39,030 nt of DNA, from the UHGV virus genome UHGV-1520160; one strand, written 5' to 3'. Below the pieces are notes generated by a model that saw only the letters and a program-made list of their open reading frames with translations, did not search any database and was not told where the DNA came from. Every line of letters begins with the position of its first letter. The stretch's first letter is position 1. Positions 1,041 through 38,432 of this stretch are shown here, one piece after another. This DNA is from a virus. The position numbers and the translations under genes are program-made.

Positions 1041-2132
1041 TTAGGCCACGTATTCCGGTTTCATATCCGCCAAGGTGATGCTGAACTGATCGTGCAGTTC
1101 GTCGCCCAGATGACGTTTTGCCGTTGCAAGAACTCGCTCAACTTCCCCAAACCGTTCAGCTGCATCCGGATCATCCGGAGACGGCAGGGAGTTTATCGCG
1201 GCTTCAACCTTGTTACGTGAATCAACCAGGTAGTAGCGCTTCACTGCCTTATTCTTCAGCTCGGTGAACAGGGCAGATCCGAGCGTGGCCTTCGCGCTTT
1301 CGATATCAGCACGCAGTGCTTTGGCGCTATCAACATCCTGTGCTGCCTCGATGCGCTCGCGGAAATCATCGGCAAGAGCGTCGATATTTACCGACGATTC
1401 GTGTGCGCTTTGCGTAGTTGTGACGGTGTCACCTGCGATTTCAGCAACGCTCATTCGTTGGGCTGAGCCAGGGTTAATAACTTTTTCTTCTCGTTCTTCG
1501 ACTTCATCGGCACTGTAAACACCAAGAATCACATCAGGGCAGTACAAGCGAGCCCAGCGCTTTACCGCGAGATAAGCGAGCTGCTGACGCGGATCACTTG
1601 CCCATAGTGTCGAATTACGAACCTGAGCCTGAGAAAGCATGAGTACCAGTTCGCGTGGCTCATCCTCGCCTTTCATCGTTGCCCACACACGAATTCCTAC
1701 ACCGGCCTCATCCTTTAAATCCCAACCGGGCGCGATGTACTTATTGCCTTTAGAACTGGTTCTCTCTACAAATCGACCAATGATGTTTTCCCATGGGCCA
1801 AACCAATCGTAATGAAGGCGATCTTTTGTAGGCGACATGTTGGTAACAACCGCATTAACCAGTTGAGCTTCGTAACCCAACACTCCGCTATTACCGACGA
1901 TGTGGGTCTTCTGAGCTACGGCAAAGGGGTCCATACCCCATCGTGCGGCCTGCATGACCACAGCCATGCAGGCATCTGGTTTTCCGCGGAAGTGGTCAGG
2001 TACAAAAGCGCCACTATTTGCCATCACTGTCGACAAGGTGCGTAGGCGGTCGAAAAGTTCCCCATTAGTCAAAATTGAGATGTTATCGATCATTTGCGTC
2101 TTGTTTTCGTTGGTAGTAATTGCAGTAGACAT
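1041..2132 (-). CDS. putative single-strand annealing recombinase (Bet/RecT superfamily), partner of RecE
   Basis: 363 aa ORF immediately downstream of the recE-like gene on the same strand. Segment ACMAVVMQAARWGMDPFAVAQKTHIV...GVLGYEAQLVNAVV resembles the lambda Bet core from memory. Family call is inferred, not searched. Confidence 0.5.
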   Translation of the reverse strand: MSTAITTNENKTQMIDNISILTNGELFDRLRTLSTVMANSGAFVPDHFRGKPDACMAVVMQAARWGMDPFAVAQKTHIVGNSGVLGYEAQLVNAVVTNMSPTKDRLHYDWFGPWENIIGRFVERTSSKGNKYIAPGWDLKDEAGVGIRVWATMKGEDEPRELVLMLSQAQVRNSTLWASDPRQQLAYLAVKRWARLYCPDVILGVYSADEVEEREEKVINPGSAQRMSVAEIAGDTVTTTQSAHESSVNIDALADDFRERIEAAQDVDSAKALRADIESAKATLGSALFTELKNKAVKRYYLVDSRNKVEAAINSLPSPDDPDAAERFGEVERVLATAKRHLGDELHDQFSITLADMKPEYVA

Positions 2133-2144
2133 GTTCTTTTCCCC

Positions 2145-5100
2145 TTATGCCTGAGTACGCAGCGCTTCAAGGCGGCGCAGGTCGAAGTCGTTCAGTTCGT
2201 CGGTGTAATCAGCGGTGATCGGCGCTGGCCATTCGCCAGTGTCAAAGCCGGTAGCGATAGCGCGCATCGCCTTGCGGTACTCGAGCATGCCCAGCTCTAG
2301 CAGTTCAGCGGATGCCTCGATGATGGCGATCCAGTGGTAGTTCTCGTCTTTGTTGACGAAAATCCAGAAGAACTGGTCAAGTGCCGCGGTCTCGCAATAC
2401 ATGGCGGCGCTCAGGTGATAGTCACGGTCGATGATTTCCCGGTGCAGTTTGGCGCGCAGACCTTCCTGCTTAATGTTCCACATGCTGATGGTTTTAAGGT
2501 CGGCACCGATGCGTACCCCGTCCAAGTCGATCTCAAGGTCAGGACGCACGCGGACTTCAAGTCCGGTTTCGTCGTCAAAGCCAAAATAGCTCACCTCAAC
2601 AGCGCGGCTCGGGTGCTGGAGTAGCATCCCGGCGGTTGGGTGCTGGAGCAGGGCTTTCTGAATGGCCAGTGCGGTGCACAGTTGCTGGCGGGTGACCAGA
2701 ACTTTTCCTTGCGGATTCTCACGCCAGGCATCCAGCAATTCGTCGGCGAAGACGGCGTCCGGATTAACAGACTTCACGGCCTGTATCAGGTCTGATTTGG
2801 TACCGGACACTTTCAGCGGTTGCGGCTTCTGCGCTTCCTGGGCCACCAGGTCAGGATTGATGATTGCCAGCTGCTCGAGTAACGCATCACGGCTACCGCT
2901 GGTTTTCACCTGTGCTGGCAGAGTGGCGTTGTATTCCTTGATGCAGGCTTTCATCGCCGCTGCGGTCTGCTTCTGGTCCGCTTCGATACGCTGATACTCT
3001 TCAGGAAGCGACATATAGCTCTGACCAGTTTCCTCGACTGAACCACCCAGCGGCACCTGTGCTGGCAGAGTGGCGTTGTATTCTTCGAGCAAGGCTTTGA
3101 TCTCATCTGCACTCAGCAGCGCTTGCAGACCTGCGTTGTAATCATCGATAAACGCGCGGATCGTTGCCGTCGTGGTGAATGCGCCTTCCGGAATTACCGG
3201 TTCAACGCTGAATTCCTCATCGAGCTGCTCTGGCTGCAACGCCAGTGCATGAACCAGGTTACCCATGTCCAGCACCGGAGAACGCTCTTTGGTGATCGTT
3301 TTGGCAACGTGGCGCGCGTTGAAGTACATCAGGCTAACGCGGGCATCTTTTACCTGCGTGCTGCTGATCCCGTTCGCTGCGTGATAAACCTCGTTCGGCA
3401 GACCTTCATAGCGACCTGGCTCGAAGTAAGCGGGGTAAACAACAGCTGGTTCGTCAGATTGGGCATCTGGCTCGGTTTGTGCCAAAACTGGTTCAGTCTG
3501 GTTTACAGAATCGCTATTTTGGGCGACAGAATCCGTATTCTGGTTTACATCGGCTTGCTGGCTGGTATCTGATTCTTCACCAGTTTCCATACTGCTTTTG
3601 CCTGACTGCACTTCAGTACCAGCCTGTTTTTCATCACTGACAGTTTCTTGAACCTGCACATTGCTGGTGGTCTCCGTAGCCTTTTTCGTGCCATGAGTAG
3701 CTGAGTTCTGCAGCAAAGCCGTAACGTCGAATATTCCGTTGCCGACATTTTTAACCAGTTCTTGTTCGACTTTCTGCGGTTGTGCCGCAGCTTCCTCTGC
3801 GCGGCGGCGTGCTCCTTCTTCACGCACGCGTTGCAGGTTCTCTTCGTGAGTGCAGAAGGATTTGCGCGGAGACTCCTTACTTTCAGGTTGGTGAATTTCC
3901 TGAGTTGCTACTTCAGCTTCATGCAACGGCAATAACTCAACCGCAGAGTTGAATTCAGCAGTCATGGTCTGGTTAACAAATTCCAGGTGAGCGACAGGGG
4001 TTAGATGAATATTTTCCGGCGCGATACGTACCAGGTTAAAAATAGCCGTGCGGTTAACGCCAAGAGCGCCAGGCTGATTGCGCAGAATGCTGCTCCATGA
4101 TTTCCACGGTTCTTCTTTTTTGGTCACGATTTCTTTGGCGCGACGAAGAATGCTGCCTGGGATCTCGAAGTGGTTGAAGTCCATAGGCAGAAGGGCACAG
4201 GCAATCTCTAAATCGAGAGTGTCCAGGGTGTGGTGTGCGTCAGGTCCACGGTCAGTGACGTAACCGCCGTTGGCATTGGTTCCGGAATCAGTACGCTGAA
4301 CACTACTGATGTGATTACCGGCAGCCCATTCACGCGCCAGGATGCCACGGTCAATGTAATCAGTAGCCGCCCACATTCTGGTGAAACGGAGTACCAGCGC
4401 GAGTTCGTGACGCTTGTCCTGGCTGAACACTTTGCGAATGGCATCGGTGTAGCGCCACAGGTCTTTGGTGTCGTAACCCTTCACTTCCGGGCAGTTCTCA
4501 GCAGCTAACAGCAAGTTCTGGACGTAACTGTTATCAGTGTCCATCTCCAGCGCGCCGATAGCTTCGTACTCTTCGCGGGTTACGTGGTGGCGCAGTTCGT
4601 CGGCGGTGAACTGGGAAAGCAGTTGCTTACGAAACGGCATCTGCACTACCGGGTAGAGGGTTGAGTCGTCGTCGTGTTCGTCCAGCGTGATGCCAGCGGT
4701 TTCTGGCAGCGTTGACTCAGTAGTTATGTGACTATCAACGGTCTGAGCCGTTTTCTCGTCAGAGTTTTCAGCTGTGACTTTTGGCAGCCAGGTGCGGTCA
4801 TCGTTCTGCAGTTCGTAGCGTTCGCACCAGGTGTAATCCACTGCGCCTTCTTCCGGCAGGTCGTCATATACCGGGAAATCGGTGCGGATTGGTTTGGCAT
4901 AATCTTTACCGCGGCCAGTTTCTTCAATTCCGGCTTCTTCCAGTGCCACATCGAGTTGGAGATTGGCGCGCGCTACACTTTTCGCAGTGAACCAAATCAC
5001 TGCATCTTTCTTGCCAGACTTCTGACTGGCTTTTATCAGATGGAAAAATTCCATGTGAGATCCTCTTTTTTGAGTGTTAGAATCCCCGGGCCAGAGATAG

Positions 5101-5192: not shown

Positions 5193-5354
5193 TTAGCCTT
5201 CGTGAGCCATCTGGTCGTGCGAAGCGCAACGTTTGGAGCAATACTCTTTTTCTTTGCGCGCCAGCTGTGAGCCGTTGCGATAGAGAAGGGTGCTCTTGAT
5301 TACTTCCTCCGTTTTAACCGGCTTGCCGCAATATCCGCATTTCTTGTCTAACAT
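5193..5354 (-). CDS. small zinc-ribbon protein (53 aa)
   Basis: Manual translation: MLDKKCGYCGKPVKTEEVIKSTLLYRNGSQLARKEKEYCSKRCASHDQMAHEG. Two Cys pairs (CxxC ... CxxxC), immediately upstream of recE in the same operon. Below the 60 aa cutoff of the ORF track. Confidence 0.4.
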   Translation of the reverse strand: MLDKKCGYCGKPVKTEEVIKSTLLYRNGSQLARKEKEYCSKRCASHDQMAHEG

Positions 5355-5365
5355 GACATCCTCCG

Positions 5366-5572
5366 CTAGTGGCTGAGTCCATGCCCCAGACCGTTCAGAT
5401 AAACTTCAACCAGCAAATCCTTGGTGTAAGTCATTTCTACGCCGCGATGCAGATACAAACGTCCGCGAGCGTTAGCTGATGCCGTCCAGGTTGAGTCTTT
5501 GTGTTTGACGAGCATCCCCGGCTGAACTGCGCCGCGGTTTACTGTCTGTGTACCGTAGTGCTGATGAACCAT
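5366..5572 (-). CDS. hypothetical protein (68 aa), first gene of leftward early operon
   Basis: ORF 5366..5716 trimmed to the ATG at 5572, which has a GGAG Shine-Dalgarno 7 nt upstream. The longer ORF begins with TTG at 5716 and has no SD. Confidence 0.35.
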   Translation of the reverse strand: MVHQHYGTQTVNRGAVQPGMLVKHKDSTWTASANARGRLYLHRGVEMTYTKDLLVEVYLNGLGHGLSH

Positions 5573-5591
5573 GATGTTCTCCAGTTTTTCT

Positions 5592-5676
5592 GAGTGAACT
5601 TCGCTGGTGGTGCCGCGGCGCTGATCTTCACGGTTGAGCGTTTTAACTCTGCAATTCACCACCGCGAAGCTCACTC
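5592..5676 (-). promoter_or_regulatory. long inverted repeat (about 20-bp arms, about 44-nt spacer) in the leader of the leftward early operon
   Basis: Arm 5592..5612 gagtgaacttcgctggtggtg against the reverse complement of 5657..5676 caccaccgcgaagctcactc; one mismatch and one indel. Confidence 0.35.
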
Positions 5677-5927
5677 TGTGCTTTGCCCTTGTCGCCAGGC
5701 TGGCGGAACGTTTCAAACCTACTGCGCGTTAATCTCACCACCTCATTCCGGTCTTCGTATGCCCCGGACGGCTACTTCGTGGGCTCCATGCCTGGGTGGT
5801 TCGTGGTGCGTCTTGGTGAGTTAGATTAAATCACTGGTTTATATATATGTCAACTTAAGGTTGGTGTTAATTGTAAATCTGAGGTTTATGTGGCTGGGTT
5901 TTGTGACACGTCTGCAGAATCGCAGGC

Positions 5928-5954
5928 AAAAAAAATCCCGACGCGTGGTCGGGA
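5928..5954 (-). terminator. rho-independent terminator ending the repressor-cassette transcript (tImm-like position)
   Basis: Plus strand has an A8 run 5928..5935 then stem tcccgac/gtcggga with loop gcgtg (5936..5954); on the minus strand this is a GC hairpin followed by U8. Confidence 0.55.
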
Positions 5955-6027: not shown

Positions 6028-6549
6028 CTAAAAGAAGTGCATAAAAGCTTTGTACAGCCCTGTACCAATGGCGATAATCGCAGGGACACCTAAGAGAATC
6101 GCCAATTTAGCATCAGAGATTTTCTTGTCCACTGTGTCTGATGAGGGCTTTTTGTCTACAGACTCTTTGATACTAGACAGCCTCTCCAAAACTACAGCCA
6201 TATTTTTGTCCAGTGAATTCACTGTCGTATCAACTTTTGAAACTGTGTTTTTTATCTCGGCAACATCTTTCTTGATGTGGGCAACTTCAACCTCAAGAAT
6301 AGCCAATCTCTTTTCCATGTCGTCACCTCCATCTTCAGTTGACGTATGAATGATTTCAGTATCATCCATAGCAACTGATGTGACAATCCGTTTTTGTTTA
6401 TCCGAAGCGGCAAAACTACAAGCACCCATAAGGAAGGTTGCTTGGCTCGAAGCTACTGATGAAAACTCTAAGCCTACTGTAGCTCCGCTATGGTCTGAAT
6501 ATGCAATCAATAACTTCCCTTCACCAAGAGATGATTGAGCCGCATCCAT
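6028..6549 (-). CDS. tail-anchored coiled-coil membrane protein (173 aa); candidate effector of the rex-position cassette
   Basis: ORF track trimmed to the ATG at 6549 (AGGAA about 10 nt upstream). Heptad-like central region (MEKRLAILEVEVAHIKKDVAEIKNTVSKVDTTVNSLDKNMAVVLERLSSIKESV) and one C-terminal hydrophobic helix (LAILLGVPAIIAIGTGLYKAF). Region looks AT-richer than flanks by eye. Confidence 0.5.
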   Translation of the reverse strand: MDAAQSSLGEGKLLIAYSDHSGATVGLEFSSVASSQATFLMGACSFAASDKQKRIVTSVAMDDTEIIHTSTEDGGDDMEKRLAILEVEVAHIKKDVAEIKNTVSKVDTTVNSLDKNMAVVLERLSSIKESVDKKPSSDTVDKKISDAKLAILLGVPAIIAIGTGLYKAFMHFF

Positions 6550-6555
6550 CAATTA

Positions 6556-6837
6556 TTATTCCTCAAACATACTTTTTAAGGATTGATAAAAATCATAAGC
6601 CTTTTGTTTGCTTAAAGTCACAGACACAACTTTGGTTCGCTGCATGCCCTTGACGACTATATCCGCATTATCCGTACCGATGATCGGGCTGCTATTCAGG
6701 AACACAAAATTGTAAACTTCGTAACCGGCATTTTGTGTGCCGATTGTTACGACACCGTCAGCATTGGTCTCGATGAAATTTTTCGCTTCGATTACATCAT
6801 TAAGATGCATAAGTTCGACGGTTGTTTCTTTAGACAC
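6556..6837 (-). CDS. hypothetical soluble protein (93 aa), first gene of the rex-position cassette
   Basis: GTG start at 6837 with a GGAGG Shine-Dalgarno 5 nt upstream; 6-nt gap to the downstream gene; 64-nt AT-rich spacer after the repressor stop. Confidence 0.5.
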   Translation of the reverse strand: MSKETTVELMHLNDVIEAKNFIETNADGVVTIGTQNAGYEVYNFVFLNSSPIIGTDNADIVVKGMQRTKVVSVTLSKQKAYDFYQSLKSMFEE

Positions 6838-6901: not shown

Positions 6902-7291
6902 TTAGGTTTGCTCACCTTGCGATCGAATCCGACCCTTCATGTACTTCTCGTACAGCTCATCTAACTCTTTCAGGCGAAGCGCAAAAATGCGGAGCATGTT
7001 CTGCTGCTCTTCTTCCGGTAACTGGCGGTAGAGCTCGAGCAAACGCTGTTCGTCCGGTTTGAGACCGTCTTTCTCCCCAACGTCTTCACCGAGTAGCCAG
7101 GCGACAGAAATACCAACAGCGTCGGCTATGGCCAGTGCCGATTTCTTACTAATCACGCCTTTTTTGAACCAGCCGTTTACGGCCTGAGGGGTGACTCCAG
7201 CTATTCTTGCCATGTCTGCTTTGGTAACGCCGCGATCAGTGATCTCAGTAAGGCGCTCCACCAGAACGAGGTTGGGTTCTTCTTTTCTCAT
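6902..7291 (-). CDS. prophage repressor, DicA/RacR-type HTH (XRE family), no S24 peptidase domain
   Basis: ORF 6902..7561 trimmed to the ATG at 7291 (MRKEEPNLVLVERLTEITDRGVTKADMARIAGVTPQAVNGWFKKG...). C-terminal LLELYRQLPEEEQ resembles the DicA C-terminal segment from memory. Divergent from a Cro-like gene. Confidence 0.7.
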   Translation of the reverse strand: MRKEEPNLVLVERLTEITDRGVTKADMARIAGVTPQAVNGWFKKGVISKKSALAIADAVGISVAWLLGEDVGEKDGLKPDEQRLLELYRQLPEEEQQNMLRIFALRLKELDELYEKYMKGRIRSQGEQT

Positions 7292-7393
7292 ATGGTCATT
7301 GTAAATATTTGGTTTATGCACGCAATAAATCCAAAGTTTGCATGAAGTATAAATCTGTGGTTTACTTCTGCTATCAATAAGCAGGAGAAGCAC
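7292..7393. promoter_or_regulatory. immunity-region intergenic: divergent promoters with repeated operator-like motif TAAAT-N5-GGTTTA
   Basis: gtaaatatttggtttatg at 7301..7318 and taaatctgtggtttac at 7350..7365; a third copy gtaaatctgaggtttatg at 5873..5890 lies upstream of the leftward operon. Confidence 0.5.
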
Positions 7394-7612
7394 ATGTCCG
7401 CACTCGATAAAGCAATTAAAGCCGCTGGCTCTGCCAGAAAGCTCAGCATCGCGCTTGGTGTGACGAGTATGTCTGTAAGTCATTGGAAGAATCGTGACCA
7501 AGGGATCGTCCCGCCAAGCTATATCTTCCCGATTTTCAAAATGACAGGCGTAACCCCCCACGAGCTGCGCCCTGATCTCTATCCAAATCCCACTGACGGA
7601 TTACCAAAGTAG
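7394..7612 (+). CDS. Cro-like HTH regulator (YdaS-type)
   Basis: 72 aa, HTH segment ARKLSIALGVTSMSVSHWKNR, conserved ELRPDL near the C-terminus; divergent from the repressor; RBS ggagaag upstream. Confidence 0.65.
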   Translation: MSALDKAIKAAGSARKLSIALGVTSMSVSHWKNRDQGIVPPSYIFPIFKMTGVTPHELRPDLYPNPTDGLPK

Positions 7613-9179: not shown

Positions 9180-9518
9180 ATGCCAAGACCAAATACACCA
9201 GAAGAGCAGGCGGCACTTATCCGGGTGATCATCGAAGAGGTGAAAATCCGTGGACGCTTAACCGTTAGCGAGGCATCACAGATGTTGTCGCTGCATCGTC
9301 AGACTGCTGAGAAGTATTTCCGCGTAGCAGCCGAACGCGGCGAACTCATTCGTTACGGTCGTCTAGGTTTGTTCAGGGACCCAAAGGCTGTAATTGATTT
9401 CGATCTCCAACGATTCTCATACGGTTCGAGTAAGCCTCTGATTGAGTTACCAGCAGATTTTCGGGGAAGTGCGGTTATGCGTCGGGTTATAGATATCGTG
9501 GGGAGGATGCCAGCATGA
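9180..9518 (+). CDS. hypothetical protein (112 aa) in the position of a replication partner (lambda P slot)
   Basis: ORF track; aggggg RBS; possible HTH (LTVSEASQMLSLHRQTAEKYF). No resemblance to lambda P recalled. Confidence 0.4.
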   Translation: MPRPNTPEEQAALIRVIIEEVKIRGRLTVSEASQMLSLHRQTAEKYFRVAAERGELIRYGRLGLFRDPKAVIDFDLQRFSYGSSKPLIELPADFRGSAVMRRVIDIVGRMPA

Positions 9519-9709
9519 CAACCGAAAAACTGGCGTTGAATTATGACCCAGCCGATCCCGACAAGATGCGATTACCGGCTGGCATAACATGTGGTAATTG
9601 CCACCATATCCATCGTTGTAAAGCAATTTTTGGACACACGGAGTCGAACACATATTGCGATTGGTCACCGTCGCGATTTACTGCTGGCATTGGCGTGAAG
9701 GGGGATTGA
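9515..9709 (+). CDS. small Cys-rich (CxxC...C...C) protein, 64 aa; paralog of 475..669
   Basis: ORF track; about two-thirds amino-acid identity with the minus-strand product 475..669 by eye. Confidence 0.5.
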   Translation: MTTEKLALNYDPADPDKMRLPAGITCGNCHHIHRCKAIFGHTESNTYCDWSPSRFTAGIGVKGD

Positions 9710-9710
9710 G

Positions 9711-9917
9711 ATGATTGCTGCAAACTACACAGTCAATCTCTACTGCGACTGCGATGAGTGCACCGGTAAGCAATGGGGAAGCCCAGATTTTGCCGAGTAC
9801 ATTGGAAATTCATGGTCTGGCTGCGCTAAAGAGGCGCGGCCACATGGCTGGCGTATCAGCAAGGATAGAACGCGAGCGTTCGCGCCAGGTCACAAGATTT
9901 CGAGGACTAACCCATGA
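9711..9917 (+). CDS. hypothetical Cys-rich protein (68 aa)
   Basis: ORF track; CDCDEC motif plus a further Cys; gggggattgag RBS; coupled to neighbours. Confidence 0.4.
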   Translation: MIAANYTVNLYCDCDECTGKQWGSPDFAEYIGNSWSGCAKEARPHGWRISKDRTRAFAPGHKISRTNP

Positions 9918-11357: not shown

Positions 11358-11561
11358 CTAACCTTTCATAAAGGCTGTTTAAGCAGGCTAATTTTCATAT
11401 CTTAGTAAAGTTTCTGCTGGTTAATAATTAGCAGATACAAAACAGAATCCCGCGATTTCACGGCGGAGCCAGCTATGTTTGCTGAAGCACTGGTGCGTGC
11501 AAATTTGCCAGAGCTTTGTCAGCAGAAACAAATAGCGGCTTAATAAAACATTGCTAATTCA

Positions 11562-11589
11562 ACCCGCTACGGCGGGTTTTCTTTTTTTA
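11562..11589 (+). terminator. rho-independent terminator
   Basis: cccgc-tacg-gcggg hairpin followed by ttttcttttttt. Confidence 0.5.
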
Positions 11590-11650
11590 CTACTGACAGA
11601 AAATTAACAATTTGTGCTCTTAAAACGTTGATCATTTCCGTGCATAGGTA

Positions 11651-13780: not shown

Positions 13781-13917
13781 CATTTGAATCCTGTTTTTCC
13801 GATCACCTCCGCGTTCGCTGGCAGCGGCTTCGCTTATACCACTTTCCCGGCTCTGTGCTAACGGACTACCGGATACTGAAGAATTACGTGAAAACTTATG
13901 CTGGAGAAGCGCTATGA
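13777..13917 (+). CDS. YlcG-like small protein (46 aa)
   Basis: Manual translation: [46 protein letters not shown]; overlaps the rusA stop and the Q start; conserved core [20 protein letters not shown]. Confidence 0.6.
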
Positions 13918-14729
13918 ACCTTGAAAACACAGTGAAATACCACTTCGCTAAATCCACACTGATTAGCGATTCTCCGCGCGCTACCGTCTCCGATTCACTG
14001 ACCGGTACCGACATAATGGCTGCCATGGGCATGACGCAGGAACGCGCCGCAATGGGTTACAGCGCCTTCCTCGGCAAGATGGGCATAAGCAATAACGACC
14101 GGGATCGGGCGATCGGTCTGCTGGCTGAGTACGCGATGACAAAATGCGACAAGGTTGCCGCACTGCGTAAGCTCGGTGCCGCGGTTAAACCTCAGGTGAT
14201 GCACCAGTTGGCCACCTTCGCTTTTGAGGACTATTCCCGCAGCGCTGCCAGCGTGAAGCAGTGCGATTGTTGTGACGGTCAGGGCTTCATTGAGGCTGAC
14301 GTGTTCACAATGAAATCTCATTATTCAATGAGGATTCCTCAATGGGCGAAAGAGCTTGGTCAGTCACCGAGTGATTTCGAGGTTAAACGACAGGTTCGAG
14401 AGGTGGTTCGAGTGCTGTGCTCGAACTGCAAGGGGAAGAAGGTTGTCAGTTGTGCCTGCAATGATTGCCGGGGACGTGGGAAAGCCGTAGACCAGAAGGA
14501 AACGAAGAAACAGGGGGTGCCGGTTATGACTGACTGCAAGCGCTGCGGCGGGCGTGGATATGAACGCATTCCTTCAACTGAGGCCCACGCAGCTATTTGC
14601 CAGATTACGGATGTAATCAGCCTGGATACGTGGAAGAAGTCCGTTAAACCGTTCTATGATCAGCTGATTACGAAATTCGATATTGAAGAGGCATGGGCAG
14701 AAAACCAACTGAAACAAATAACACGATAA
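13914..14729 (+). CDS. late-gene antitermination protein Q (phage 82 / QuuD-like, Cys-rich zinc-binding)
   Basis: 271 aa; position after rusA/ylcG and before the lysis genes; multiple Cys clusters (CDCCDGQG, CSNCKGKK, CACNDCRGRG, CKRCGGRG). Confidence 0.75.
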   Translation: MNLENTVKYHFAKSTLISDSPRATVSDSLTGTDIMAAMGMTQERAAMGYSAFLGKMGISNNDRDRAIGLLAEYAMTKCDKVAALRKLGAAVKPQVMHQLATFAFEDYSRSAASVKQCDCCDGQGFIEADVFTMKSHYSMRIPQWAKELGQSPSDFEVKRQVREVVRVLCSNCKGKKVVSCACNDCRGRGKAVDQKETKKQGVPVMTDCKRCGGRGYERIPSTEAHAAICQITDVISLDTWKKSVKPFYDQLITKFDIEEAWAENQLKQITR

Positions 14730-15547: not shown

Positions 15548-15826
15548 ATGACCAGAATGAGCACCATTTACAGCAGACTTTCATATGGAACAGGAACCAC
15601 GCTGACCGGCTGCGGTGTATCAGCGAAGGCATATGCCGAAACAGCTAAAACAGCAAAAGAGGTGTCCTGGATGTTGGCCGACAGAATTGCAGGGTTAAGC
15701 CTGAGCGACTGGGCAATTATTGTCGGTATCGCATGCACGGTAATCACCTGTGCAGTGAACTGGTATTTCCGCTGGAAAGAACGGGAGGATCGGCGCAATG
15801 GCTATGTCTCTAAAGCTGAAGAATAA
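15548..15826 (+). CDS. holin (class II / pinholin-like)
   Basis: 92 aa; hydrophobic helices (WAIIVGIACTVITCAVNWYF) followed by a charged tail (RWKEREDRRNGY); immediately upstream of the lysozyme. Confidence 0.65.
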   Translation: MTRMSTIYSRLSYGTGTTLTGCGVSAKAYAETAKTAKEVSWMLADRIAGLSLSDWAIIVGIACTVITCAVNWYFRWKEREDRRNGYVSKAEE

Positions 15827-17916: not shown

Positions 17917-18381
17917 ATGACGCTTGGCGTTGAGATTGATACCTCTGCTGCACAAAAGGCAATCGACGAGCTGGACCAGCGCATTCGTGACACCGTCTCC
18001 TTCGAACTTATTCGCAATGGAGTGTCATTCATCAAGGACGCCGCTATCGCAAATGGTGCTATCCACGCAGCGGCAATCGAAACACCTCAGCCGGTGACCA
18101 ATATCTACAACATCAGCCTTGGTATCCAGCGTGATGAGCCAGCGCAGAACAAGGTAACCGTCAGTGCCGATAAGTTCAAAGTTAAACCTGGTGTTGATAC
18201 CAACATTGAAACGTTGATCGAAAACGCGCTGAAAAACGCTGCTGAATGTGCGGCGCTGGATGTCACAAAGCAAATGGCAGCAGACAAGAAAGCGATGGAT
18301 GAACTGGCTTCCTATGTCCGCACGGCCATCATGATGGAATGTTTCCCCGGTGGTGTTATCTGGCAGCAGTGCCGTCGATAG
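17917..18381 (+). CDS. hypothetical protein (154 aa) immediately upstream of cos
   Basis: ORF track; no clear Shine-Dalgarno; start uncertain. Confidence 0.35.
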   Translation: MTLGVEIDTSAAQKAIDELDQRIRDTVSFELIRNGVSFIKDAAIANGAIHAAAIETPQPVTNIYNISLGIQRDEPAQNKVTVSADKFKVKPGVDTNIETLIENALKNAAECAALDVTKQMAADKKAMDELASYVRTAIMMECFPGGVIWQQCRR

Positions 18382-37758: not shown

Positions 37759-38432
37759 TGGCCGAATTTGGCGCGATGATATTAATGGATAACGGGAATC
37801 CCTTTGTAACGCCACAATCAACGCCTTTCTGTCTTTACGGGAAGTATACCTTCAATTCATCCGCGAATGGCAGTTCTCAGCAGGTTGCTCAAAATATCGC
37901 TTTAAACGCTGATTACCCAGTGATGGTTTTTATCAAAACCACCAATACAGCACAGCCCACTCCGGTTATGTCTTACAGGAACGGCGGTAATGTGTATGTT
38001 GCTGGTGTTAATCCCTACAACCAAAGTTTCACTTTAACGGCGTACGTTTTTGCCATATTCCCGCAGATATTACCGAAATGGGGTTTGGCAATATGGGATG
38101 CGAGCGGAAAGCTTGTGTTAACTAATGAGTCCCGTGTGCTATCAGACCTGCAGACGGTTGGCACGCCTGGTGCAAACGGCGGGATAAATATTGACCAGAC
38201 GCTGAGCGGGTCATGGGCCGTTGCACCTGCTCAGTTGGGTCAGACCATCATTGTGAATAATTCAACCCAGCCTCCGACTATCTACACGATAAATGCTTAT
38301 TCTTCATGCAGGTTTGACGGGGCCAATACGAGGATAAACGCAGGGGGGACCTCCACTGGGACAGGTTCACCTGTAGGGGGAACGAATACTGGCATTTCAT
38401 TAACCGCCATAAATACAGCGGCCTATGATTGA
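37758..38432 (+). CDS. hypothetical protein (224 aa) with two copies of the same domain plus Gly/Thr/Asn-rich C-terminus
   Basis: ORF track; internal repeat and paralogy with 37456..37758; C-terminus GGTSTGTGSPVGGTNTGISL. Confidence 0.45.
   Translation: MAEFGAMILMDNGNPFVTPQSTPFCLYGKYTFNSSANGSSQQVAQNIALNADYPVMVFIKTTNTAQPTPVMSYRNGGNVYVAGVNPYNQSFTLTAYVFAIFPQILPKWGLAIWDASGKLVLTNESRVLSDLQTVGTPGANGGINIDQTLSGSWAVAPAQLGQTIIVNNSTQPPTIYTINAYSSCRFDGANTRINAGGTSTGTGSPVGGTNTGISLTAINTAAYD

Follow-up and report, generated by a model that had tools for sequence, protein, structure and literature searches.

The put RNA of phage HK022 is the textbook example of an RNA that confers termination resistance on bacterial RNA polymerase unaided, and to our knowledge only about ten close relatives of it are known. 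Antitermination in the rrn operons uses a boxB hairpin, boxA and boxC together with NusA/B/E/G, SuhB and S4, and in Bacillus the eps-associated RNA (EAR), a structured and possibly pseudoknotted RNA within a long operon, has been implicated in processive antitermination. Many lambdoid phages carry no N, and we know of no explanation for how their delayed-early genes are expressed. The putL element of HK022 lies directly downstream of the leftward promoter (PMC9378689), which is also the position of the RNA that we describe here. For the N-less phage LLS, whose left operon is like those of ST64B and phiNP, it has been proposed that it "may have" put-type antitermination, with no element identified (PMC12315714; 2025).

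We consider the leftward early leader of a 39,030-nucleotide viral DNA (UHGV virus genome UHGV-1520160), the whole of which we call the window. The window is a lambdoid prophage, and its leftward operon opens with kil, followed by a 53-aa ORF, recE and recT (Table 1). The closest sequenced phage is mEp237 (97.6% identical DNA over 5300-5805), in which the same ORF is annotated as Kil and the leader bears no annotation. PHROG scans of the left-operon and right-operon ORFs find Kil, RecE, RecT, Cro, a CII-like protein, O and a Q-like protein, and no arginine-rich N protein among them. This agrees with an earlier note, made from the sequence of this DNA, in which no N-like antiterminator could be recognised; Q without N is true of both the window and mEp237. 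Chi sites (GCTGGTGG) occur in the window eight times on the + strand and never on the - strand.

The leftward immunity operon ends in an intrinsic terminator that takes the position of lambda t-imm, immediately upstream of PL, and the related loci repeat this layout of a terminator and then a promoter. The TTGACA of the window, together with a -10-like hexamer, aligns in 11 phages. The pseudo-palindrome TAAATC-N4-GGTTTA, present twice at the leftward promoter, is found twice more in the interval that separates the repressor gene from cro (7302-7316 and 7350-7364). Judged from their sequence and placement, the four copies are probably the OL and OR operators of the immunity type of this prophage, and the sharing of the motif between the two regions indicates that PL is repressor-controlled. 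Transcription from PL would start near 5817, so that the transcribed leader would run for about 245 nt (~5817 to 5573). The earlier note had described a non-coding leader of roughly 350 nt; the non-coding part of that description stands, and the length does not, since it takes in the promoter and the operators. Its view of an untranslated, structured leader ahead of the first leftward gene (ATG at 5572) is borne out by RNA folding and by the evidence on kil. The leader is a chain of three RNA modules: a core, a second domain and a 20-bp hairpin.

Table 1. Coordinates of the leader modules, the PL region and the early genes in the window
Feature	Position	Strand	Details
recT	1041-2132	-	
recE	2145-5054	-	
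53-aa ORF	5193-5354	-	between kil and recE
kil	5366-5572	-	68 aa, ATG 5572; phrog_294, E 2e-34
kil Shine-Dalgarno	5582-5579	-	GGAG
Long inverted repeat	5592-5676	-	20-bp stem with branched 44-nt top; RNA folding
Second conserved domain	5682-5736	-	words CGCAG-N-AGG and ACGUUCCG, then small pseudoknot
Second domain, S1	5705-5701 with 5697-5693	-	
Second domain, S2	5700-5697 with 5688-5685	-	
Core RNA	5737-5800	-	three-way junction of ~64 nt; covariance model 88.6 bits, E 4.5e-27
Core, closing helix P1	5800-5795 with 5742-5737	-	
Core, hairpin PA	5792-5782	-	GGC / 5-nt GGA-containing loop / GCC
Core, junction	5781-5769	-	CACGAAGUAGCCG
Core, P3	5768-5764 with 5751-5747	-	encloses loop GGCAUACGAAGA at 5763-5752
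Core, junction	5746-5743	-	AUGA
Core, possible pseudoknot	5772-5770 with 5763-5761	-	3 bp
PL -10	5830-5825	-	TTTAAT; 17-nt spacer after -35
PL -35	5853-5848	-	TTGACA; sequence read
Operators	5827-5841, 5874-5888		TAAATC-N4-GGTTTA; flank and overlap leftward promoter
Terminator of leftward immunity operon	5955-5935	-	intrinsic; 8-bp stem with 5 G-C, then TTTTTTTT
Two accessory genes	6028-6552, 6556-6837	-	leftward immunity operon
Repressor gene	6902-7303	-	leftward immunity operon
cro	7394-7612	+	
cII-like gene, O, ninB, rusA		+	
Q-like antiterminator	13914-14729	+	

The next question is which part of this leader is conserved. A sensitive BLAST search of phage genomes with 5573-5930 as the query singled out 5682-5811, not the long hairpin, with 80-86% identity in unannotated DNA of unrelated phages. 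The matches are in Salmonella phages (SPN3UB, SEN34, SW-37 and FSL SP-016), Klebsiella phages, the Citrobacter phages Chris1 and phiNP, and the E. coli phages PHB10 and mEp237; they always have the repressor-side genes on one side and the first leftward early genes on the other, and the latter differ from phage to phage. When these relatives are aligned, a TTGACA promoter is followed by a conserved block whose flanking helix carries compensatory changes. The earlier note had pointed to the long inverted repeat of the leader; the widely conserved, covarying RNA is found instead in the core and the second domain (5737-5800 and 5682-5736).

The fold of the core can be read from its family alignment, which is 80 nt long and gap-free, and on which an RNAalifold prediction and a separate analysis of the columns agree. 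The closing helix P1 has 5-6 bp and occurs as CCACC/GGUGG, GUCAUC/GAUGAC, GCGAA/UUCGC, ACGAA/UUCGU and GGAAC/GUUCC. The hairpin PA has three GGC/GCC pairs and always carries GGA in its 5-nt loop. P3 has 5 bp, one position of which shows all four Watson-Crick pair types; its further variants include CCCCA/UGGGG, CCACC/GGUGG and CCAGC/GCUGG. Over 52 distinct viral sequences, 94.4% of the cells are paired, and the covariation is 0.422 against 0.145 in shuffled alignments (reached in 0 of 500) and 0.03-0.12 when the partners are slid. The same analysis on the bacterial-genome hits (68 distinct sequences) gives 0.589 against 0.166. The heavy compensatory variation falls in two helices, P1 and P3. 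The most conserved segments are the unpaired ones (AGGCA, CACG-N-AGUAGC-Y-G, GGC-NNNN-GAA and AUGA), and the junction and loop bases are nearly invariant across the family. As a single sequence the core does not fold with unusual stability (z -0.35), a point against the function proposed below. We are nearly certain that the core represents a real, conserved family of structured non-coding RNA.

The alignment also suggests a 3-bp pseudoknot that would stack on P3. The pair between alignment columns 40 and 47 covaries (CG/UG/UA/GC), and columns 38-39 and 48-49 are invariant, so that the interaction is plausible on the evidence of one varying pair. Column 33 and columns 50-53 were forced by the first search pattern, and in a second, differently anchored scan they really vary. 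An extended pairing of columns 35-37 with 51-53 was considered and ruled out, since columns 50-53 vary freely in that scan.

How widely the core is distributed was examined with three scans. A pattern scan of IMG/VR gives at least 120 loci, the second scan, anchored elsewhere, adds 43 further loci, and a scan of bacterial genomes gives 75 loci, about 67 of them true. Altogether the core is present in more than 200 prophage loci and is nearly always single-copy. It is found in phages of Escherichia, Salmonella, Klebsiella, Citrobacter, Enterobacter, Erwinia, Yersinia and Xenorhabdus; the hosts within the Enterobacteriaceae comprise Escherichia/Shigella, Klebsiella, Citrobacter, Enterobacter, Kosakonia, Leclercia, Atlantibacter and others, and those beyond it belong to the Erwiniaceae, the Yersiniaceae and Xenorhabdus. 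Among 5426 complete E. coli genomes, 101 have the core, in one copy each, and no listed record annotates an RNA there. Both ST64B (91.6 bits) and phiNP carry it, and in the examined stretch of ST64B no N-like gene is annotated or apparent.

In all loci the core is located just downstream of a TTGACA-type leftward early promoter that follows the terminator of the immunity operon, with P1 beginning at about +2 to +17 from the predicted start; in the window the core begins some 17 nt past it. Across the promoter, the genes most often found nearby are cro, the repressor, cII-like genes and O. The first genes downstream are diverse and not N-like, and no universal gene family that could supply a common, nearby-encoded protein partner is found downstream among the core loci. 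The commonest first gene after the element encodes a protein of about 52 aa (MIDFARKP...; phrog_31129 and phrog_22279; 80 related loci), as in L035, where it follows the second domain by about 50 nt; the window lacks this gene and has the long hairpin and kil in its place. In short, the core family is widespread, uncatalogued and confined to the 5' ends of the PL operons of Enterobacterales lambdoid prophages, where it is RNA-structured, non-coding and promoter-proximal, and it occurs mostly in phages that lack N.

Several loci show departures from this arrangement. The core is also found on IncF plasmids (L253 and L254; NZ_CP130097.1 at ~18213-18264 and CP070404.1 at ~15610-15661), where it sits in prophage remnants beside an excisionase, IS elements and the gene for a subtilase AB5 toxin B-subunit. 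In the window the covariance model finds one copy only, and a model search with the filters off finds no second, putR-like copy in it. A search of the 8-kb bacterial loci likewise gives no second copy, with L237 and L244 as the sole double hits. In these two (L237 3630-3696 and L244 976-1042, both on the - strand), the intact core is followed after about 670 nt, behind an inserted gene on the opposite strand, by a truncated copy; this keeps P1, P3 and the loops, has no PA hairpin and resembles a scar left by recombination where two modules meet. A separate RNA, the Hfq-binding sRNA isrB of Rfam, is found antisense to the left operon in SPN3UB (L004 1761-1848, + strand) and in Rouxiella (L143 7687-7775, + strand), in the latter on the opposite strand just downstream of the core; the window has no isrB hit.

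What follows the core differs between classes of loci. About half of the family has the second domain (94 of 187 distinct tails), the window among them. Its helix S1 occurs as CGCC/GGCG, CGUC/GACG and GGCU/GGCC, and S2 as GCCU/GGGC, GCCU/AGGC, GCCA/UGGC, GCCG/CGGC, GCUG/CAGC and CCC/GGG; on a direct reading of these variants, both change in a compensatory manner between lineages. In 22 of the 187 tails the core is followed by a hairpin and an rrn-type boxA, GCUCUUUAACAA, and the frequency of such a boxA in the first 130 nt past the core exceeds background more than 30-fold. In some other loci the core stands alone, 25-35 nt before the first start codon, with neither hairpin nor terminator. ST64B (L255) has a structured non-coding leader of about 630 nt between the core and the first gene (9238-9866, - strand), in which one branched hairpin precedes CUUUUUC (~9655-9697) and another hairpin is very stable (z -2.8); similar long structured leaders are seen in L020, L026 and L065. 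Three Xenorhabdus loci (L186, L187 and L196) have a boxA and a boxB-type hairpin (nutL) after the core and a nutR-like site after cro. An N-like gene (phrog_271) is then present in L187 and L196, whose nutL and nutR hairpins have the loop AGGCAYUCUU in common; in L186 the next ORF resembles a transposase rather than N.

We turn to what such an RNA might do. The earlier note had named a cis-acting RNA element as one possibility for this leader, and we find it the most reasonable reading. We propose, tentatively, that the core works in cis as an RNA and renders the elongating RNA polymerase termination-resistant. The core would fold while it emerges from the polymerase and would act in cis on its own elongation complex, which would then resist pausing and Rho-dependent or intrinsic termination along kil, recE and recT and onward to xis. 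It might do so by binding the polymerase directly, like HK022 put, or by nucleating host Nus factors in the rrn manner, the latter option being suggested by the association with boxA. The second domain would be an accessory to the core, and the 20-bp hairpin would have a local role of its own, plausibly as a site for RNase III or as a control on the translation of the toxic kil. Because the bases of the core are invariant across phages that differ in repressor, downstream genes and host genus, its partner is expected to be a conserved host factor and not a phage protein. In some loci the core alone precedes the first gene, so the function should reside in the core itself.

The proposal has to be read together with the terminators and antiterminators around the core. 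For the 4 kb downstream of the core in the window, prediction yields no intrinsic terminator on the sense strand, so any termination overcome there would be Rho-dependent. For the family, intrinsic-terminator candidates downstream of the element number 123 on the sense strand and 503 on the antisense strand, with none in the window. An excess of terminators was considered as support for antitermination and is uninformative, as sense candidates are rarer than antisense ones; the deficit is probably due to base composition. The rightward operon has no copy of the core despite a strong terminator before Q. This intrinsic terminator (11561-11578, + strand) lies upstream of ninB and Q, and about 40 nt past it is a boxA-like TGCTCTTAAAA (11616-11625, + strand). 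L187 and L196 combine the core with nutL, an N-like gene and a nutR-like site, which argues that the core is not merely a substitute for N. Where boxA or nutL follows the core, the downstream module may be the real antiterminator and the core may have another role.

Alternatively, the long inverted repeat itself could be the key element, as an RNase III-processed or antiterminating stem that controls the first gene, in the way of the hairpin in the lambda N leader. The repeat that the earlier note had seen does fold as one stem of 20 pairs, between a 5' arm at 5676-5657 and a 3' arm at 5612-5592, with one G-U and one bulged A, and a repeat search recovers its outer 13-nt part. The minus-strand RNA of 5685-5585 has a minimum free energy of -44.3 kcal/mol, whereas shuffled sequences average -23.7 (z -6.4), and none of 200 shuffles reaches its stability. 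This very stable, nearly perfect stem ends 9 nt before the Shine-Dalgarno of kil and provides about two helical turns of duplex upstream of a gene, which is long enough for RNase III. RNAalifold on nine homologues retains the stem, with four pairs changed on both sides and none broken. The hairpin is limited, however, to mEp237-like relatives and one other lineage, L071, to which the four compensatory pairs belong. It is present in about 8 of the more than 200 element-bearing loci and in a single phage of the phage collection, and in L071 a small ORF precedes it and its distance from the core is about 200 nt greater. A structure with this distribution cannot serve the early operons of this phage group in general, and with no U-run after it, it is not an intrinsic terminator. 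We therefore regard this explanation as rather unlikely. The hairpin is at most a local processing or translation element, perhaps cut by RNase III, and a local role in kil expression would be compatible with an antiterminating core. Two further features touch the hairpin: one of the Chi sites of the window (5603-5610, + strand) falls within the DNA of its 3' arm, and in L071 the non-coding sequence beyond the hairpin contains an ops-like GGCGGTAGTTGT (4468-4479, - strand), which agrees with the 12-base RfaH ops consensus in its first 8 bases, possibly by chance.

Other readings concern the core or the leader as a whole. The leader might be translated, as part of the 116-aa ORF at 5366-5716 or as an antisense ORF such as 5594-5824; one frame is open over the hairpin region in all nine homologues, and some annotators call small ORFs over the element. 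We find this scarcely credible. The 116-aa ORF requires a TTG or GTG start that has no Shine-Dalgarno and is buried in the 20-bp stem; in mEp237 and L121 the extension and kil are in different frames, owing to a 1-nt indel; and the PHROG match lies essentially within the 68-aa kil, the extension adding just 7 residues. The earlier note had already remarked that the 116-aa reading depends on a TTG start without a Shine-Dalgarno. Of the reading frames on both strands of the core, none is open throughout the 105 distinct sequences (best 69 of 105), and the variation is compensatory for RNA pairing. A 36-aa peptide inside the hairpin, considered along with these ORFs, was rejected as coding too. 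That the core serves as a platform for a host RNA-binding regulator such as CsrA, setting the stability or Rho sensitivity of the PL transcript, is improbable. Two GGA motifs, presumably resembling the CsrA consensus, lie about 40 nt apart in the core: the one in the PA loop is kept despite a shift of register (AGGAC, AGGAA and AGGAU against AUGGA), and the second is kept at the border of P3 and the junction (GGAUGA or GGAAUGA). The invariant bases also imply a conserved partner. But CsrA requires just a GGA in a loop, which leaves CACG-AGUAGC, GGC....GAA, AUGA and the three-way junction unexplained; moreover, no Shine-Dalgarno overlaps the core, and the second GGA is a trivial consequence of conserved pairs. 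Small ribozymes are common in phages, and the core, a compact junction that lies at the very 5' end and has invariant unpaired bases and perhaps a pseudoknot, could be a self-cleaving ribozyme or a processing signal that trims the early transcript. The core, however, matches no Rfam ribozyme even at E<=10 and offers no nameable cleavage-site signature, and its junction strands of 2, 13 and 4 nt are incompatible with a hammerhead, which makes such an activity very improbable. The chance is slim, too, that the core is a riboswitch aptamer that senses a host metabolite or ion and gates lytic early expression. The variable closing helix, conserved junctions and possible pseudoknot are aptamer-like, but no expression platform is conserved: the sequence after P1 differs by class, some loci have only 25-35 unstructured nt to the start codon, and neither a conserved terminator, nor an alternative that sequesters the Shine-Dalgarno, nor an Rfam match is found. 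A released small RNA is a further alternative. The position of the core, its distribution among phages and the fact that no conserved platform is needed would favour an effect on the elongation complex.

An antiterminating core would have consequences beyond this prophage. It is conceivable, and we say this with more reserve than the proposal itself, that the core founds a class of protein-independent antiterminators unrelated to put, or is an RNA that reprograms polymerase or Rho in cis, and that it supplies the early antitermination device missing from the many N-less lambdoid prophages of Enterobacterales, among them mEp237, ST64B, phiNP, SPN3UB, SEN34 and their relatives. The core is a concrete, testable candidate in culturable phages (mEp237, ST64B, SPN3UB, SEN34 and phiNP), and it offers obvious point mutants (CACGAAGUAGC, GGC....GAA and AUGA) as well as compensatory ones. 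If it acts on the polymerase, it would show that RNA-mediated antitermination has a second, independent solution, and it would provide a new handle for work on the elongation complex as well as a compact synthetic-biology part. If it self-cleaves or binds a ligand or a regulator, it would still be a new and widespread class of RNA, one now missed or mislabelled as small ORFs.

How does the core compare with the known RNAs? A search of the whole window against Rfam 15 at gathering thresholds gives no hits, at E<=10 only chance snoRNA matches appear in 5500-5950, and Rfam searches on 16 related loci do not match the core. EAR is in Rfam, whereas the core has no Rfam hit; the two belong to different phyla and show no relation in sequence or model. 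With the lambda nutL/N leader, the leader of the window shares its place after PL and a long duplex ahead of the first gene. It differs in having no boxB-type hairpin, and the window has no N. A lambda-type boxA (CGCUCUUA / GCUCUUUAA) is absent from this leader, the sole match in the window being at 11616 (+ strand). Some words of the lambda PL leader resemble the core (CAGGACGC, CCACC...AUGA..GGUG and AUACGAA), a resemblance that we take as chance because the core model has no hit on the lambda leader; where the core and nutL occur together, the core is upstream of nutL and is therefore a different element. The GCUCUUUAACAA that follows the core in a subset of the family is identical to the core of the rrn boxA, with no N gene nearby, whereas the class to which the window belongs has no boxA, and the rrn leaders have no counterpart of the core.

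The put RNAs of HK022 and HK639 remain the nearest comparison. Homology between them and the core was considered and rejected after both putL sequences were read and searched with the model: the core covariance model does not match HK022 or HK639 (best 12.7 bits), the putL sequences do not align with the core, and nothing in it recognisably resembles the put consensus (GxCGAACGGCGCGxC...UAAACCAUGCGUCGG...). The folds differ as well, put being two side-by-side stem-loops without a closing helix and the core a closed three-way junction. HK022 has a second put copy after PR, whereas the window has one core; in HK639, as in the window, the element is annotated in the left operon alone. In the rightward operon of HK639 (L132), an RNA annotated as "M3-like RNA" (37910-37969) follows the cII-like gene; no counterpart of it was found in the window. 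The function of put, read-through of terminators in cis that needs no phage protein and depends on the zinc-binding domain of the beta-prime subunit, has been demonstrated experimentally; antitermination by the core is what we propose from its setting. That setting is put-like in several respects. Both are folded RNAs of ~60-130 nt, transcribed immediately after an early promoter in a lambdoid phage without N, and in the window the promoter, the operators and a core within about 17 nt of the predicted start occur together, with no N found. Furthermore, the genes that flank PL in mEp237 are homologous to those in HK639 on either side, and mEp237 carries the core where HK639 has its annotated putL-like RNA.
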